From Promethearchaeota archaeon (GTDB lineage Archaea; Asgardarchaeota; Odinarchaeia; Odinarchaeales; JBHLKK01), in NCBI GenBank assembly GCA_048939465.1, contig JBHLPL010000009.1, positions 1 to 32,000 on the forward strand: DNA of 32,000 nt, given 5' to 3'. Below are positions 2,247 to 10,042 of this stretch, piece after piece. A program made the position numbers and the translations under genes. Within the stretch, counting starts at the first letter, position 1. The number at the start of each line of letters is the position of its first letter. The notes under the pieces are model-generated. The model saw nothing but the letters and a program-made list of their open reading frames with translations, had not been told where the DNA came from and searched no databases.

Positions 2247-2277
2247 GGCTAATTAGAAAGTACTCTCGGAATGCTGT

Positions 2278-2459
2278 GCCGGGGTAGCCAAGTGGTCTAC
2301 GGCGCTGGCCTCGAGAGCAGCTAACATAAAAGGAAGAATACATAAAAGACAACGGAAATCCTTTGGGACAGATTGAACAAGAAAGTCAGTGACGCAGTAG
2401 CGTCTCGCGGGTTCGAATCGGCGCTACATTACGCCGCGAGAATCCTGCCCCCGGCGCCA
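2278..2459 (+). tRNA. tRNA-Ser(CGA) with two introns (37/38: 2316-2383; 59/60: 2418-2442) and encoded CCA
   Basis: Acceptor stem GCCGGGG/CCCCGGC, discriminator G plus CCA, anticodon arm CTGGC-CTCGAGA-GTCAG after removing intron 1, long variable arm GACGC-AGTA-GCGTC, T arm GCGGG-TTCGAAT-CCTGC after removing intron 2. Confidence 0.93.
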
Positions 2460-2538
2460 CTTAATACAACCCATGTTACCGATCAATTAGTGCATCAATC
2501 AACACGAGTCGGGATTGGAGGGTTGGTGTTGAGGCTGT

Positions 2539-2863
2539 GTAGACTGCCCCCCGCTTTCGCAGGGAGCCTTCCATCAGAGGTTGAGTATGGTGCACCGCAC
2601 CACGCAACCCCACCGTCAACAGGACGAAAGAGCCTGCCTACAGGGACTCCAGCTCTGGTAAACTGGGAAAAGACGTTGTACCCTCGAACTTCCCGCACCT
2701 TATCTCATCAATCCCCCCCGCGGGTCATTAACCGTTTCCACATGGGAGAAAAGCGTGCCTTTAGCCCTATTCGAATATATTGCAAGAATGTAGAATGTAC
2801 TTGGAGACGGTTCAATCACTCTCCGCCCTTCCGGACGGAGTTTCCTTGAGGTGGTTCAGGTGT
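2539..2863 (+). mobile_element. Element E1 (325 nt): ORF-less IS200/IS605-like (omegaRNA/HEARO-like) insertion near the 5' end of porG
   Basis: Starts GTAGACTGCCCC plus a hairpin, ends with hairpin CTCCG..CGGAG-TTTCCTTGAGGTGGTTCAGGTGT directly before ATGAA. Its 3' half aligns with E2 and E3. Family assignment is inference from end motifs. Confidence 0.7.
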
Positions 2864-3420
2864 ATGAAATTCGCTGGCATGGTCGAGGAGGACAAGGTGC
2901 AGTAACAGCATCCTATGTTCTCGTAGATGCCGCATATAGAGACGGCTATGAAGGCGTTCAGTCTTTTCCTTTTTTCGGTGCTGAGAGGAGAGGGGCACCA
3001 GTTAAAGCGTTTACTAGAATTTCAAAGACGATGATATATTCCCGCTGCCAAATTTATGAGCCTGATGCGATCATAGTTTTGGATCCTACTTTGCTGGATA
3101 TTGTCGATGTTACGGAAGGATTGAAAAGAGGCGGAGTCATTGTAGCCAATGCAAATGAGGTTCCAAAGAAATGGAGAAACAAGAATTGGAAGATATACAT
3201 AGTTGATGCTACTGCAATAGCGCTAGAAGTCGGCTTGATCGTAGCGGGATCCCCTGTATTAAACACGCCGATGCTGGGCGCATTTGCTAAAGCAACGGGA
3301 TTAGTAAGGCTGGAGAGAATCAAGGAAGCGATAAGCAATAAGTGGAAAGGCAAGGCCGGAGAAAGAAATATAAAAGCGGCAGAATTAGCATATGAACAGT
3401 GTAAATTGGTAGTATCTTAG
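2860..3420 (+). CDS. porG: 2-oxoacid (pyruvate):ferredoxin oxidoreductase gamma subunit
   Basis: YEIRWHGRGGQGAV and FFGAERRGAPVKAFTRIS. GTG at 2860 follows SD GAGGTG. Substrate specificity (por versus vor/kor) cannot be resolved from sequence. Confidence 0.92.
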   Translation: MYEIRWHGRGGQGAVTASYVLVDAAYRDGYEGVQSFPFFGAERRGAPVKAFTRISKTMIYSRCQIYEPDAIIVLDPTLLDIVDVTEGLKRGGVIVANANEVPKKWRNKNWKIYIVDATAIALEVGLIVAGSPVLNTPMLGAFAKATGLVRLERIKEAISNKWKGKAGERNIKAAELAYEQCKLVVS

Positions 3421-3436
3421 GCTAGGGGGACTTATT

Positions 3437-3769
3437 CTGAATTCTGGAACTCGGCAAAAGAGTCTGGTTCTTGGAAAGACTGCTAAGACCAAGAAAAAGA
3501 AAGCAGGAATTAGACCTGACGCAATACCTTTATCAAAGCCTGGCAGGGGATCTTACGGCAGAACCGGAGATTGGAGAACCTTCAAGCCGGTAATGGATAA
3601 AGAAAAATGCAACAAATGTATGCTCTGTTGGCTTTATTGTCCAGAAGGAGTAATAGATCAAGGGAAAGAAGGATATCCGAAAATCGATTATATGTATTGT
3701 AAAGGTTGTGGCATTTGTGCTCAAGAATGCCCATCCAAGTGCATAGAAATGGTGAGAGAGGAAAAGTAA
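3437..3769 (+). CDS. porD: 2-oxoacid:ferredoxin oxidoreductase delta subunit (2x[4Fe-4S]); start codon uncertain, missing from the ORF track
   Basis: The frame encodes PLSKPGRGSYGRTGDWRTFKPVMDKEKCNKCMLCWLYCPE...YCKGCGICAQECPSKCIEMVREEK*. There is no in-frame ATG/GTG/TTG before the conserved region; CTG at 3437 after GGGGGA is tentative. Confidence 0.88.
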   Translation: MNSGTRQKSLVLGKTAKTKKKKAGIRPDAIPLSKPGRGSYGRTGDWRTFKPVMDKEKCNKCMLCWLYCPEGVIDQGKEGYPKIDYMYCKGCGICAQECPSKCIEMVREEK

Positions 3770-4065
3770 ACTATTCCTCTCCTGTCGAAGGAGCTTATGA
3801 CTATGCTAGACCTCAATTCCCGAGCGGGCTTTGGTTCCGGTACACGCCAAATCAGGGGGCAGTTTACATCGTCCCAGCCCACTAGTCCCCATATAACGTC
3901 GGGGTTTATAGTTTATTTCACACATCTTCCCCACAGGTCGGTGACCGTTTCCGCGTCAGAGAGGGGTGCGCCTTTAGATATTTCAGCAAATATATAACAA
4001 ACGTATTTGAAGGCCACTAAATTCCTCTCCTCCCTTTCGGACGGATTCTCCTTGAGGTGGTTCAA
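3766..4065 (+). mobile_element. Element E2 (300 nt) at the porD/porA junction
   Basis: Starts GTAAACT (overlaps the porD TAA), ends TTCTCCTTGAGGTGGTTCAA directly before ATGAA (porA start). About 70% ungapped identity to E3 over 138 nt by hand count. Confidence 0.8.
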
Positions 4066-5277
4066 ATGAAAACACAGATTATGACGGGAAATACGGCTGC
4101 AGCGTATGCTGCCAAATATGCGAGAGCACAAGTTATCGCTGCTTATCCCATAACACCACAAACCACAATCGTAGAAGCGATAGCGAGTCTCATAGATGAA
4201 GGTGAAATGGAAGCAGAATACATTCGTGTCGAGAGTGAACACAGTGCTATGGCAGCTTGCATTGGTGCTGCCGCTACTGGAGCCAGAGCATTTACTGCAA
4301 CATCATCCCATGGCCTTACTTTGATGCATGAAATGCTTCATTGGGCTAGCGGATCTAGGTTGCCCATTGTTATGGCAAATGTCAATCGAGCCATGGGACC
4401 GCCGTGGAATATATGGCCCGATCACAATGATAGCATATCACAAAGAGATGTTGGATGGATACAATTCTATGTCGAAAACAATCAAGAGGTATTCGATACG
4501 ATCTTACAGTGCTACCGGATTTCTGAAAACCAAGAAGTTCTGTTGCCCTCCATGGTGAACCTCGACGGCTTTATTATTTCTCACACCTCTGCCCCGCTAA
4601 GCTTACCTGGTCAAGAAGAGGTCGATGAATTCATACCGGACTATAACCCAAATCCGGAGAAACAACTTGTCATGGATACTCACAAACCAGTGACACATGG
4701 CAACATCATTATGGTTAACAGTCCAGACGATTGGTATTATGAGTATCGTTATATGATTCACGAAGCTATGATGAACGCCAAGAAGGTCATTCAAGAAGTT
4801 GTAGAGGAGTTTCACAGAAGATTCGGTAGGTCACACGGGGGATTGGTTGAAGAGTATAAATGTAAAGATGCAAACCTGATTTTAGTATCCATGGGAACTA
4901 TTGCAAGCCAGGCTAAAGCCGCTATCGATGAGTTGAGACAGGAAGGATACAAAGTGGGAGCTCTCAAGCTAAGGGTTTTTAGACCATTTCCTAGGGAGGA
5001 GTTCCAAAGACTGGCAGATAGAGTCGAAGCCCTTGCGGTGATAGACAGGAACATATCTTTTGGAATGGGGGGTGCAGCTTCCGCAGAGATTAAGGCTGCA
5101 TTATACAATCACAAGAAACACCCATTAATCTTGGAGAACATCGCAGGAATAGGAGGGAGAGACGTGACATCCTCCGATATTAAAAAGATGGTTCTGGGTG
5201 CATTAGAAGTGCTAGAAACTGGTAAAACAGGAGAGGATATTAATTGGCATGGCCTCCGAGTGGGAGAAATGAAGTAG
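4066..5277 (+). CDS. porA: 2-oxoacid:ferredoxin oxidoreductase alpha subunit
   Basis: AYPITPQT, VESEHSAM, ATSSHGL, NVNRAMGPP, KLRVFRPFP. ATG at 4066 with SD GAGGTG. Confidence 0.95.
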   Translation: MKTQIMTGNTAAAYAAKYARAQVIAAYPITPQTTIVEAIASLIDEGEMEAEYIRVESEHSAMAACIGAAATGARAFTATSSHGLTLMHEMLHWASGSRLPIVMANVNRAMGPPWNIWPDHNDSISQRDVGWIQFYVENNQEVFDTILQCYRISENQEVLLPSMVNLDGFIISHTSAPLSLPGQEEVDEFIPDYNPNPEKQLVMDTHKPVTHGNIIMVNSPDDWYYEYRYMIHEAMMNAKKVIQEVVEEFHRRFGRSHGGLVEEYKCKDANLILVSMGTIASQAKAAIDELRQEGYKVGALKLRVFRPFPREEFQRLADRVEALAVIDRNISFGMGGAASAEIKAALYNHKKHPLILENIAGIGGRDVTSSDIKKMVLGALEVLETGKTGEDINWHGLRVGEMK

Positions 5278-5570
5278 ACTGCCCCTCCGATAAGAAAGGA
5301 GTTTATGACTATGTTTGACTACAATTTCTTCAGGGGGTCCGGTTGCATCACATGCCAAATCAGGGGACGGTTTATAGCGTCCCAGCCCAGTGACCCGCAC
5401 ACAGCGTCGAGGTATGTAGTCTCTTTCACCCATGCTCCTCATCCGTTATTAGCCGCTTCCTCCCTCCGAGAGCGTACCTCTGAATCCATTAGCACGGTTG
5501 AAACGAACGTATTTAAGGACCGCCCAATTGATCCCTTACTTTTCGGAAAGAAACTTCGTGAGGTGGTTTG
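5274..5570 (+). mobile_element. Element E3 (297 nt) at the porA/porB junction
   Basis: Starts GTAGACTGCCCC (overlaps the porA TAG), ends CTTCGTGAGGTGGTTTG directly before ATGAA (porB start). Homologous to E2. Confidence 0.8.
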
Positions 5571-6476
5571 ATGAACTCAATATTAGGACTTCCGAGGAAG
5601 GAACTCGTGTATAAGGGAAATAGCGCGTGTATGGGTTGTAGCGCTGTATTGGCAATGAGACATGTGTTAAAAGCTCTAGGTGAGCAAACTGTCATGATCA
5701 TACCGGCAGGCTGTAGCACAATAATTCAGGGTCTCTATCCAAAAACTGCTATTGGCGTTCCTCTGCTCAACATCGCTTTCGAGGCTGCTGCAGCTGCGGC
5801 CTCCGGCATTACAGCAGGATTTAGAGCTCAAGGAAAGAAGGACATTACTGTGGTAGCGTGGGCAGGAGATGGAGGGACATTTGATATTGGACTTCAGGCA
5901 TTAAGTGGTGCGGCAGAACGTCAGACGAATATGATTTACATATGTTATGACAACGAGGCATACATGAATACGGGAATTCAACGTAGCGGCGCAACCCCCT
6001 ACGGAGCCATAACGACCACGACGCCGGGAGGAAAGAGACTACCTAAAAAGGACCTTGATGCGATTGTCTTGGCTCACGACGTACCTTATTTGGCAACTGC
6101 CAACATAGGATACCCACAGGACCTCTATAGGAAAGTCAAAAAAGCGAAAGAAAAGGAAGGATTCAGATTCATCCACATACTAAGTCCTTGCCCCCCAGGA
6201 TGGAGGTTTGATTCAAGTCTTACAGTCACCCTGGCGAAGTTGGCGGTTCAGACTGGCATATGGGTACTGTTTGAGGTGGAAGACGGCAAATTCAGACTTT
6301 CAGGACCAAGCAAGAGACTGCTGGACCCGAATAAAAGAAAGCCTGTCGAAGATTATCTGAAGCTTCAGGGAAGATTCTCAGAGCTCACAGGTGAGGATGT
6401 GAAAGAGATAAATAGAGAGATCGTGGAAAACTGGCAAGAAATAAACAGAAAAGTCTCTCGAGCAGAAGGAGTGTAG
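5571..6476 (+). CDS. porB: 2-oxoacid:ferredoxin oxidoreductase beta subunit (TPP-binding)
   Basis: ACMGC, GDGGTFDIGLQ...CYDNEAYMNTGIQRS (TPP motif), SPCPPGW. Confidence 0.95.
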   Translation: MNSILGLPRKELVYKGNSACMGCSAVLAMRHVLKALGEQTVMIIPAGCSTIIQGLYPKTAIGVPLLNIAFEAAAAAASGITAGFRAQGKKDITVVAWAGDGGTFDIGLQALSGAAERQTNMIYICYDNEAYMNTGIQRSGATPYGAITTTTPGGKRLPKKDLDAIVLAHDVPYLATANIGYPQDLYRKVKKAKEKEGFRFIHILSPCPPGWRFDSSLTVTLAKLAVQTGIWVLFEVEDGKFRLSGPSKRLLDPNKRKPVEDYLKLQGRFSELTGEDVKEINREIVENWQEINRKVSRAEGV

Positions 6477-9259: not shown

Positions 9260-9847
9260 TTGGAAGTCGAAAAATCATCCGAAAAAACGATAAATGAGGT
9301 TCAGTATTGGATAAAACGACAGCTGAGAGACCCAATCACAAAAATATTGCTTCCCAAATCCAGTCTGACGGAAATACAGTTAAATACGCTTTTATTAGAC
9401 CTCATGACGGATTCAATTTCACACAGAAAATTGACCTATAGAGAGAAGGCAACTTTGAGAAGACTGAAAGTCGAGGCCAAGAACGAGGGGAAGAAAACAA
9501 AAAGAAAGGTAGTATCAACTGCGGATGGAGTATCACGAGGTGCTTTCAACAGGGTGTTAAGGCAAGCCAGGCGGAACGTGATCCGTTCAGTCTACACCAT
9601 AATCCTATTAGGGTACCTGGGCATTTTTGAAGAGCCTAAATTGCAGCCATACTTGGTTTTGGCTAAGGAATTGAGAGAATATGTCAAGACCTATGAAGAG
9701 GTTTGGAATAAACACCAGAAACGAAAGACGAAGAAAAGTGAAATGGAATTACTGAGAACTTTTCAAGAGCACATCAAGGAGCTGGTGCAGAAACTTGGAG
9801 ATCCGTTAGCACTAAAAGAAGGAATAGAAACGGATTATGAGGTGTAA
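9260..9847 (+). CDS. Conserved hypothetical protein (possible HTH: GVSRGAFNRVLRQARRN...YTIILLGYLG)
   Basis: Long ORF with plausible composition; TTG at 9260 follows GGGGGT. Confidence 0.7.
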   Translation: MEVEKSSEKTINEVQYWIKRQLRDPITKILLPKSSLTEIQLNTLLLDLMTDSISHRKLTYREKATLRRLKVEAKNEGKKTKRKVVSTADGVSRGAFNRVLRQARRNVIRSVYTIILLGYLGIFEEPKLQPYLVLAKELREYVKTYEEVWNKHQKRKTKKSEMELLRTFQEHIKELVQKLGDPLALKEGIETDYEV

Positions 9848-10042
9848 ACCGCTCCTCTGGTTTGGGGGACAATGGAATACGCAGTCATATATTGTATTTG
9901 ACTCAGTCTATGTCTCATCTTCTCTCTCGCTTTTCCGGTCTTCACAGAGCCGAGCATTTGATAGGAAATCTCTGCATACAAAGCTAATCGAAATTAGAAA
10001 ATATATTTAAATACATTGATTTGTATCTTTTTGTGACAAACT

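Follow-up and report, generated by a model that had tools for sequence, protein, structure and literature searches.

Gene-less IS200/IS605 derivatives as the probable identity of three spacers in an archaeal por operon

The window examined here, a stretch of 32,000 nt (positions 1 to 32,000 of contig JBHLPL010000009.1, assembly GCA_048939465.1, Promethearchaeota archaeon), contains a four-gene 2-oxoacid:ferredoxin oxidoreductase (por) operon that is interrupted by three odd spacers of about 300 nt, termed E1, E2 and E3: one before porG, one between porD and porA, and one between porA and porB. What are these spacers, and how can an essential operon of energy metabolism carry three of them? With a probability of about 93%, they are palindrome-associated transposable elements (PATEs, also known as MITEs), internally deleted and gene-less derivatives of IS200/IS605 insertion sequences (IS) of the TnpB-only (IS1341-like) type, whose top strand is antisense to the por genes. 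The repeat family to which they are assigned is called family A, and the three copies are located as follows.

2539..2859, minus strand: E1, family-A PATE (gene-less IS200/IS605 mini-element), with its right end at 2539 and its left end at 2859; nhmmer E-value 1e-47
3766..4065, minus strand: E2, family-A PATE in the porD-porA gap; nhmmer E-value 2e-82
5274..5570, minus strand: E3, family-A PATE in the porA-porB gap; nhmmer E-value 2e-68

The alignment of E1, E2 and E3 has a mean column identity of 72% and displays a common start, GTA(A/G)ACT, shared internal blocks and an invariant 10-mer, TGAGGTGGTT. Pairwise identities are 0.52 (E1-E2), 0.48 (E1-E3) and 0.65 (E2-E3), a likeness far beyond chance expectation. 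Because contigs from independent metagenome runs cover the elements together with their junctions, with 0-3 differences, E1-E3 are not an assembly artefact; some metagenome contigs skip 2487-2860, the E1 region, and one skips 5210-5570, the E3 region.

The surrounding genome, G000, is a metagenome-assembled genome (MAG) of 1.96 Mb and 91% completeness, and two sister genomes of the genus, G001 and G002, are available for comparison. An nhmmer search of G000 seeded with E1-E3 retrieves 19 full-length copies of 279-321 nt (about 295 nt), with E-values between 1e-47 and 1e-97, E1 being the most diverged. An interpretation made earlier from the letters of this DNA alone, referred to here as the sequence-only reading, had described three homologous elements of about 300 nt with the features listed above, and the alignment of the three bears this out. 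Beyond the full-length copies, family A in G000 includes two 97-nt mini versions and several solo ends, amounting to about 35 partial matches in all. BLAST yields 13 and 3 matches in the sister genomes and no full-length copy in another 38 genomes from the order and phylum; with copies in both sisters, family A seems to be restricted to the genus. All copies open with GTAAAC(T/C)ACTCC and close with ...CTCCTTGAGGTGGTTYAG, and in 15 of the 19 full-length copies a co-oriented gene starts within a few bases downstream. The genes that follow are functionally unrelated to each other and include isocitrate dehydrogenase (icd), ribosomal protein S27ae, ScpA, a HAM1-type NTPase, a PFL-like glycyl-radical enzyme and an aminotransferase.

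The class of the family is revealed by elements that share both of its ends. In a search of G000 for the TnpB zinc-ribbon domain (PF07282), matches coincide with partial matches of the elements, and contigs C70 and C55, which overlap by 77 nt, together yield one IS of ~1.24 kb. This IS consists of TTCAT, a left end (corresponding to the gene-sense 3' module of the elements), an intact tnpB encoding 381 residues and a right end (the gene-sense 5' module), which closes with ...GTAGTTTAC. Three more full-length copies of ~1.24 kb are present in the sisters: L025 of G001, with an intact tnpB encoding 380 amino acids (aa), and L046 and L047 of G002, the latter frameshifted. The tnpB product matches PF07282 (4e-22) and PF01385 (5e-8), its nearest solved structures are TnpB/Cas12f, and the TnpB sequences show the RuvC motifs DLG, EDL and NSDLNGARNI as well as a CxxC...CxxC zinc ribbon. 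The consensus of the mini-elements corresponds to IS positions 107-171 (left end) joined to positions ~1198-1347 (tnpB 3' end and right end). Since the ends are common to tnpB elements and the consensus equals two end segments of the IS, the mini-elements can be understood as internally deleted IS200/IS605 elements, i.e. PATEs. At ~295 nt they have no coding capacity of their own and retain only degenerate remnants of TnpB residues ~332-381; tblastn still detects residues 332-371 inside five better-kept copies. C5:942-1316 of G000 represents an intermediate deletion form in which a C-terminal TnpB fragment is kept.

Two open reading frames (ORFs) inside the elements, 3797-3997 and 5305-5571, run antisense to the tnpB 3'-end remnants and are best regarded as chance ORFs, in agreement with the description of the elements as ORF-less in the sense that no gene is expected. 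They were considered as small proteins and dropped, the conserved ATGACTATG being an arm of an omega-RNA helix.

Both ends of the family carry subterminal hairpins, CTCCGYCC-GAAA-GGRCGGAG at 19 nt from the left end and CTCCTTC-TGCA-AGGGAGGAG at 8 nt from the right end. The two hairpins are alike in direct orientation, and functional terminal inverted repeats are absent. In the por operon, sequence and family alignment place the left-end hairpins, the right-end hairpins and the right halves as follows.

2821..2840, minus strand: left-end subterminal hairpin of E1, its foot 19 nt from the element end
4025..4046, minus strand: left-end subterminal hairpin region of E2
5533..5552, minus strand: left-end hairpin region of E3, degenerate
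3773..3793, minus strand: right-end subterminal hairpin of E2 (approximate), ~8 nt before the terminus ...TAGTTTAC and equal to helix 7 of the consensus structure; equivalents at ~2546-2567 in E1 and ~5281-5301 in E3
3766..3944, minus strand: right half of E2 (remnant of tnpB 3' coding sequence plus right end, the putative omega-RNA scaffold region), from the alignment with full-length IS right ends; equivalents at 5274-5452 in E3 and 2539-2740 in E1

The sequence-only reading had proposed non-autonomous IS200/IS605 derivatives with subterminal hairpins and a fixed pentanucleotide, and the full-length IS200/IS605 elements that share both ends support this assignment. The orientation has to be reversed, however: the top strand of the elements is the reverse complement of the strand that had been read, the left end is what had been taken for a 3' hairpin followed by TGAGGTGGTT, and the GTARACT start is the right-end terminus. 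Read on the top strand, the layout is the target TTCAT, a left end composed of a 19-nt spacer, the hairpin and a TATA-like TTAAATA, followed by ~190 nt (the last ~50 tnpB codons and the right end), the right-end hairpin and 8 nt closing with ...TAGTTTAC. In the parent element, the ~190-nt segment would be the site of the scaffold of the TnpB guide RNA (omega-RNA). By analogy with established IS200/IS605 biology, the elements would move as single strands with a Y1 transposase (TnpA) supplied in trans, and each copy may still yield an omega-RNA that takes its guide from the adjoining host DNA.

The insertion history of the operon is documented by empty sites. In G001 and G002, the por operon lacks all three elements: porG and porD are 20 nt apart, porD and porA 24-27 nt apart, and porA and porB overlap. 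The por operons of two genomes of the same order likewise lack the elements. The empty porA/porB site of both sisters, where the stop of porA overlaps the start of porB, has the sequence ...GAAATGAA|ATGAAT..., and E3 of G000 is inserted exactly at the bar with zero duplicated bases. This site and several other empty sites are without duplication, confirming that target-site duplications are lacking, as had been noted from the letters alone. Upstream of porG, both sisters lack E1 at the orthologous site. Conversely, nine sites that are occupied in G001 or G002 have no full element in G000; eight of these are empty and one holds a 21-nt remnant (9844-9864). Three of the nine are sites of full-length IS, and that of L025 has an exact junction, 5' of ATGA. 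The species have two insertions in common, at aclA-icd and smc-scpA.

The remnant lies in the window itself, and the statement that the window contains no further copies therefore holds for full-length copies but not for reduced ones.

9844..9864, minus strand: fourth family-A copy, a terminal-only 21-nt remnant of 14 nt right end and 7 nt left end; G002 has a complete copy of 305 nt (L022:72-377) at the orthologous position

The gene upstream of this remnant still stops at the remnant's TAA, and the start of the downstream gene is shifted by two codons relative to G002. Reduced forms are also seen elsewhere: the two 97-nt minis, C84:8667-8763 and C41:8644-8740, combine 58 nt of right end with 40 nt of left end, and both adjoin ATGAA.

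The preferred target can be deduced from the flanks of the left ends. E2 and E3 adjoin ATGAA exactly (at 4066 and 5571), as had been claimed for all three elements. The end of E1 by homology is 2859, the next four bases open with GTG (2860-2862), at which porG starts, and the reading frame does not contain the ATGAA at 2864 as such (TAT GAA); E1 therefore adjoins a start codon and not ATGAA. Across the family, ATGAA adjoins 14 of the 26 left ends that are intact in G000 and, in the relatives, 8 of 11 independent ones (22/37 independent left ends in total), and most of the others are one base off. As background, ATGAA occurs in ~15% of the ATG starts in G000 that are preceded by a Shine-Dalgarno sequence and at 0.19% of positions. 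On the element strand, insertion takes place 3' of TTCAT, beside the left end; this geometry is canonical for IS200/IS605, and it is where a TnpB has its target-adjacent motif (TAM). TTCAT is accordingly predicted to be the TAM of the family-A TnpB.

The sequence-only reading had named three observations that would count against an IS200/IS605 origin, and none of them was made: copies outside the operon do adjoin ATGAA, tnpB elements with the same ends exist in G000, G001 and G002, and the orthologous por operons of both sisters are free of all three elements.

A further line of evidence comes from RNA structure. An alignment (A3) of 25 sequences, comprising the right halves of 21 mini-elements and the tnpB 3' ends of four full-length IS, gives an RNAalifold consensus energy of -31.1 kcal/mol on the tnpB-sense strand versus -11.1 kcal/mol on the por-sense strand. 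In the seven helices of the consensus, 92.9-93.8% of the cells are paired (92-97% per helix), compared with 40-49% when partners are slid, and 0 of 500 shuffles match any measure. Double changes are found at 16-17 pairs, many of which separate the mini-elements from the full-length IS and thus represent few independent events. Helix 7, the right-end hairpin, is 95% paired and shows compensatory changes. A conserved fold with compensatory changes exists on the tnpB-sense strand alone. A loop-tail pseudoknot beside the guide is described for TnpB omega-RNAs; in family A, a candidate pseudoknot would join the hairpin loop GUAAAC to the terminal GUUUAC, a pairing preserved at 97% and including a single compensatory change, which is found in E1. 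The family-A omega-RNA may be transcribed, bound by TnpB and guided by sequence from the flank. E1, E2 and E3 keep 26/36, 28/36 and 30/36 of the omega-RNA pairs, respectively, the lowest values among the 25 sequences (31-36 in the others), and on this comparison they are decaying copies. Two other approaches were abandoned: RNAalifold of the full 323-column alignment and an all-against-all helix scan were both dominated by purine/pyrimidine-rich noise and were replaced by A3, and a gene-strand consensus fold of E1-E3 was superseded after the functional strand had been established.

How the operon accommodates the insertions becomes apparent when the ends are read on the gene strand. The affected genes and the element-borne signals are arranged as follows.

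2860..3420, plus strand: porG (gamma subunit, pyruvate/2-oxoacid:ferredoxin oxidoreductase), an ORF with 86% aa identity to the sister porG
3434..3769, plus strand: porD (delta subunit), start uncertain (ATT at 3434 or CTG at 3437), from tblastn and junction sequences
4066..5277, plus strand: porA (alpha subunit), an ORF with 87-89% aa identity to the sisters
5571..6476, plus strand: porB (beta subunit), an ORF with 88-89% aa identity to the sisters
2848..2853, plus strand: GAGGTG, putative Shine-Dalgarno from the E1 left end, 6 nt before the porG GTG (2860-2862)
4054..4059, plus strand: GAGGTG, putative Shine-Dalgarno from the E2 left end, 6 nt before the porA ATG (4066)
5560..5565, plus strand: GAGGTG, putative Shine-Dalgarno from the E3 left end, 5 nt before the porB ATG (5571)
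3767..3769, plus strand: TAA in the E2 right-end terminus (G-TAA-ACT), now the porD stop; the ORF ends at 3769
5275..5277, plus strand: TAG in the E3 right-end terminus (G-TAG-ACT), now the porA stop; the ORF ends at 5277

On the por strand the left end reads ...TTGAGGTGGTTYAG, and its GAGGTG is complementary to the 16S 3' end ...GGATCACCTCC, taken from the SSU rRNA of a same-order genome as a substitute for the three genus genomes, in which this end is not assembled. The element-borne Shine-Dalgarno is the sole one in range, because each insertion parted the native ribosome-binding site from its start codon, and the por genes thus probably use ribosome-binding sites of the elements. At the opposite end, porD closes with ...GAA AAA TGA in the sisters and ...GAA AAG TAA in G000, while porA closes with ...ATG AAA TGA and ...ATG AAG TAG, respectively. 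The insertions of E2 and E3 hence changed the last codon silently from AAA to AAG, and the old porA stop (the TGA overlapping the porB ATG) was replaced by the TAG at element positions 2-4.

TGAGGTGGTT, a putative Shine-Dalgarno sequence on the gene strand, is the longest block without variation in E1-E3, whose identity elsewhere is 48-65%. This invariance would fit selection at the host level, with the caveat that the left-end terminus is well conserved throughout the family. Co-option of the ribosome-binding site is therefore plausible, while domestication of the whole element is not supported.

These features suggest a mechanism by which such insertions would be tolerated. Because ATGAA, the complement of the preferred target TTCAT, is a common context of gene starts, tolerated insertions would accumulate right before start codons. 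The gene-strand left end, GAGGTGGTTYAG, would then set a Shine-Dalgarno 5-7 nt before the start codon, and G-TAA or G-TAG of the right end would give an in-frame stop at ATGA junctions, in which the former stop shares bases with the following start. Since the right end supplies a stop and the left end a Shine-Dalgarno, insertions would be nearly silent for both neighbours, and three could therefore persist in one essential operon. A more far-reaching version is put forward tentatively, as a possibility rather than an expectation: that the family is fitted to translationally coupled junctions, that the por genes depend on transposon ribosome-binding sites, and that the elements, as cassettes of promoter and omega-RNA antisense to porD and porA, might modulate the operon.

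E1-E3 provide a natural example of an IS200/IS605 mini-element entering an operon without breaking it, since one of its ends brings a stop and the opposite end a ribosome-binding site. For annotation, this means that the porD and porA stops and the ribosome-binding sites of porG, porA and porB in G000 are probably transposon-derived. In addition, an intact archaeal TnpB is provided by family A with a predicted TAM, TTCAT, and with the scaffold of its putative omega-RNA.

The presence of three copies within a 3-kb operon exceeds the chance expectation for a family of ~26 in 1.96 Mb. The simplest reading is that the three start-codon junctions are 'safe' sites; positive selection would be the more interesting one. 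E1 and E3 alone among 30 copies carry the right-end variant GTAGACTGCCCC (2539-2550 and 5274-5285; consensus GTAAACTACTCC), which hints at a common source or at gene conversion inside the operon. Shared derived sites overall give no support to E1-E3 being sister copies that arose by local hopping, a relation favoured by the GTAGACTGCCCC variant alone.

Several observations weigh against the assignment of E1-E3 to the PATEs. E1 has no TTCAT neighbour (its flank is TACAC) and shows 2-4 extra bases (GT/GTGT) at the junction relative to the sisters; the porG start is GTG in G000 and TTG in the sisters. At the E2 site, the sisters possess a 24-nt spacer that is missing from G000, and the insertion is not base-exact here. 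The mean identities of E1 and E3 are 0.55 and 0.63, compared with 0.62 and 0.72 for a copy that is shared between the species and older than their split, yet both elements are absent from both sisters. This would be explained by divergent source copies, by fast decay in a highly expressed operon or by precise excision in the sister lineage. Among the structural data, the excess of G:U over A:C cells (172 versus 26) is biased by the prediction of the structure on the top strand, and the comparison of energies between the two strands is the fairer one. Rfam returned nothing relevant on either strand, whether at the gathering score for the whole window or at E-values up to 10 for 2400-5700 (a chance snoRNA match, E 6), and may hold no model for this clade. 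The ends show 8-11 nt of inverted complementarity (TAAACCAC / GTGGTTTA), superficially like terminal inverted repeats. Finally, a single tnpA was found in this 91% complete MAG, and it is that of another IS subfamily, the family-A subfamily containing none.

This tnpA is the one Y1 transposase gene of G000 (PF01797, 7.5e-37) and is part of an IS605-type element with tnpA and tnpB (C105:~1000-2900), whose right end, ...GGGTGGAGTAGTTCAC, and hairpins resemble the ends of both PATE families of the genome (the second is described below). It is a candidate for the enzyme that mobilises family A in trans, and nothing more. Just upstream on C105, a hairpin is followed by TAGTTTAC, which looks like a family-A right end or a one-hairpin mini element.

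Among the alternatives, the one that survives best, though unlikely, is domestication of the PATEs as a whole, either as expression modules (promoter, leader and Shine-Dalgarno) or as guide-RNA genes with antisense transcripts regulating porD and porA. It would account for a perfect Shine-Dalgarno block in three otherwise decayed copies and for their clustering in one operon; the family consensus moreover contains a TATA-like TATTTAAG, preceded by purines and ~55 nt upstream of the Shine-Dalgarno on the gene strand, and an omega-RNA, if one is made, would run antisense to the preceding genes at their 3' ends. Yet E1-E3 have the fewest omega-RNA pairs of all sequences compared, E1 lacks the TATA-like motif, and the sister species manage without the elements. 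The earlier suggestion of a possible domestication is thereby narrowed to the ribosome-binding block, the one part that looks maintained.

That the spacers are vertically inherited cis-regulatory leader RNAs of the por operon on the gene strand, riboswitch-like or involved in processing, is very improbable. All three are co-oriented with the operon and close in a Shine-Dalgarno and start codon, TGAGGTGGTT is invariant despite 48-65% identity, and three copies per 3-kb operon is an unusual clustering, as such leaders might show; the por operons of two sister and two same-order genomes, however, lack them, the other copies precede unrelated genes (from icd, S27ae and scpA to the HAM1-like, PFL-like and aminotransferase genes), the fold resides on the opposite strand and Rfam is empty. 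Equally little credit is due to classical MITEs with terminal inverted repeats, moved by a DDE transposase (for example of the IS630/Tc1-like type, with TA duplication). The termini are partly complementary (TAAACCAC...GTGGTTTA) and TA occurs near both ends, but neither TA nor any other base is duplicated at the porA/porB and several other sites, the ends are shared with tnpB elements and not with a DDE transposase gene, the two hairpins have the direct orientation and the spacing (19 and 8 nt to the respective end) known from IS608-type elements, and the short complementarity coincides with the Shine-Dalgarno and the right-end tail.

Least probable of all is the proposal of the sequence-only reading that the partner is IscB, with a HEARO or omega-RNA at the left end and ATGAA as the IscB TAM: it is right in the ~300-nt size, the structured interior and the IS200/IS605 class, but every full-length element with these ends encodes TnpB (PF07282 and PF01385), the conserved fold occupies the tnpB 3' end and right end (the TnpB layout) instead of the left end, no HEARO or other Rfam model matches even at E-values up to 10, the motif on the element strand reads TTCAT and adjoins the left end on its 5' side, the usual place of an IS200/IS605 target and of a TnpB TAM, and the genome has no match to PF14239 (RRXRR) in a search that lacked a working positive control and carries little weight. 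With strand and partner nuclease corrected (TnpB, not IscB), the identity of the spacers can be considered settled at the probability given above.

A second PATE family of G000 offers a contrast to family A. Its members are ~215-225 nt long, with 43 nhmmer matches of which 15 are near full-length, on contigs C39, C137, C68, C141, C59, C133 and others, and no copy in the window; the parent tnpB is C2:26090-27244. The family ends with ...TCTTCTTGCGGAGAAGAAG (...TCTTCT-TGCGGAGAAGAAG), has the right-end tail ...TAGTTCAC, lacks the GAGGTG Shine-Dalgarno and adjoins ATAAA (target TTTAT), not a start codon. A loop-tail pseudoknot GTGAAC/GTTCAC was not found in the eight copies examined. The hexamer beside the left hairpin is AGAAGA in the second family and AGGAGA in family A, in parallel with the targets TTTAT and TTCAT. 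This one-base parallel between spacer and target would be expected from DNA-guided target choice in IS608-type elements, and the two sister families in one genome constitute a ready-made test of it.

The first genes of the window are that of a Hef-like helicase and, on the minus strand, a small zinc-ribbon ORF; a small conserved gene and a tRNA gene with introns come next, and then the por operon. The tRNA gene (~2277-2460, plus strand) is Ser-like with a long variable arm and has two apparent introns, the first behind the anticodon loop and the second within the T arm. The sister genomes have it as well, likewise upstream of porG. ARAGORN reports no tRNA in the window, this gene being missed by both ARAGORN and Rfam. 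In none of the three genus genomes does the conserved N-terminus of porD have an in-frame ATG, GTG or TTG before 3593 (window 3421-3440; L036 and L037), and its start is likely an ATT or CTG a few bases behind GGGGGA. Both sisters also possess a second porA-like gene with 43% identity and two in-frame stops (L033, G001:C2; L034, G002:C176).

Among known systems, ERIC/IRU, Correia elements and BIMEs are intergenic repeats that are co-transcribed with operons. Like these, E1-E3 are small repeats that are tolerated in operons and would be able to alter flanking expression; the former, however, have neither sequence nor mechanism in common with family A, being of the inverted-repeat or REP type, and do not sit between a stop and a start codon with base precision. 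IS608 of Helicobacter pylori and ISDra2 of Deinococcus radiodurans are the mechanistic models of the IS200/IS605 family. Family A resembles them in its strand-specific insertion 3' of a fixed 4-5-nt motif beside the left end, in the absence of duplication and in the distances of the hairpins from the ends (~19 nt on the left, ~8-10 nt on the right), and the parent element in having tnpB between the ends and a guide RNA that would overlap the tnpB 3' end and the right end. Unlike IS608 and ISDra2, the family-A copies have neither tnpA nor tnpB, and the target is TTCAT instead of TTAC or TTGAT.

PATEs 'often encode omega-RNAs' on which TnpB acts in trans, and the PATE-like elements of Geobacillus stearothermophilus retain omega-RNAs and depend on TnpA and TnpB supplied from elsewhere (Meers et al. 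2023, PMC10055086). As in these ISGst-type systems, many tnpA-less elements with common ends face one candidate tnpA in trans, the mini-elements appear to keep omega-RNA modules that would need a TnpB encoded elsewhere, and target motifs are clade-specific and would double as TAMs. The ISGst-type elements are bacterial and experimentally tested, whereas family A is known from sequence, with a predicted TAM, TTCAT, and a sister family at TTTAT.

The closest counterparts are the IS605-type elements of haloarchaea and the PATEs of Haloquadratum walsbyi, core-deleted IS605-type elements that include terminal-only forms (Dyall-Smith et al. 2011, PMC3119063). Family A shares with these PATEs the lack of genes, of terminal inverted repeats and of target duplication, as well as near-terminal palindromes in common with IS1341-type (tnpB) elements, an apparent origin by core deletion, heterogeneous sequence and terminal-only remnants, represented here by the 97-nt minis and the 21-nt remnant. 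It differs in lineage and sequence, and in that its copies are located almost always directly before start codons, with an outward Shine-Dalgarno. In the literature searched, no description was found of an IS200/IS605 end bearing a Shine-Dalgarno at start codons, or of such PATEs. The class of PATEs is thus already known, and the arrangement of a stop and a Shine-Dalgarno at coupled junctions is the notable extra of family A.

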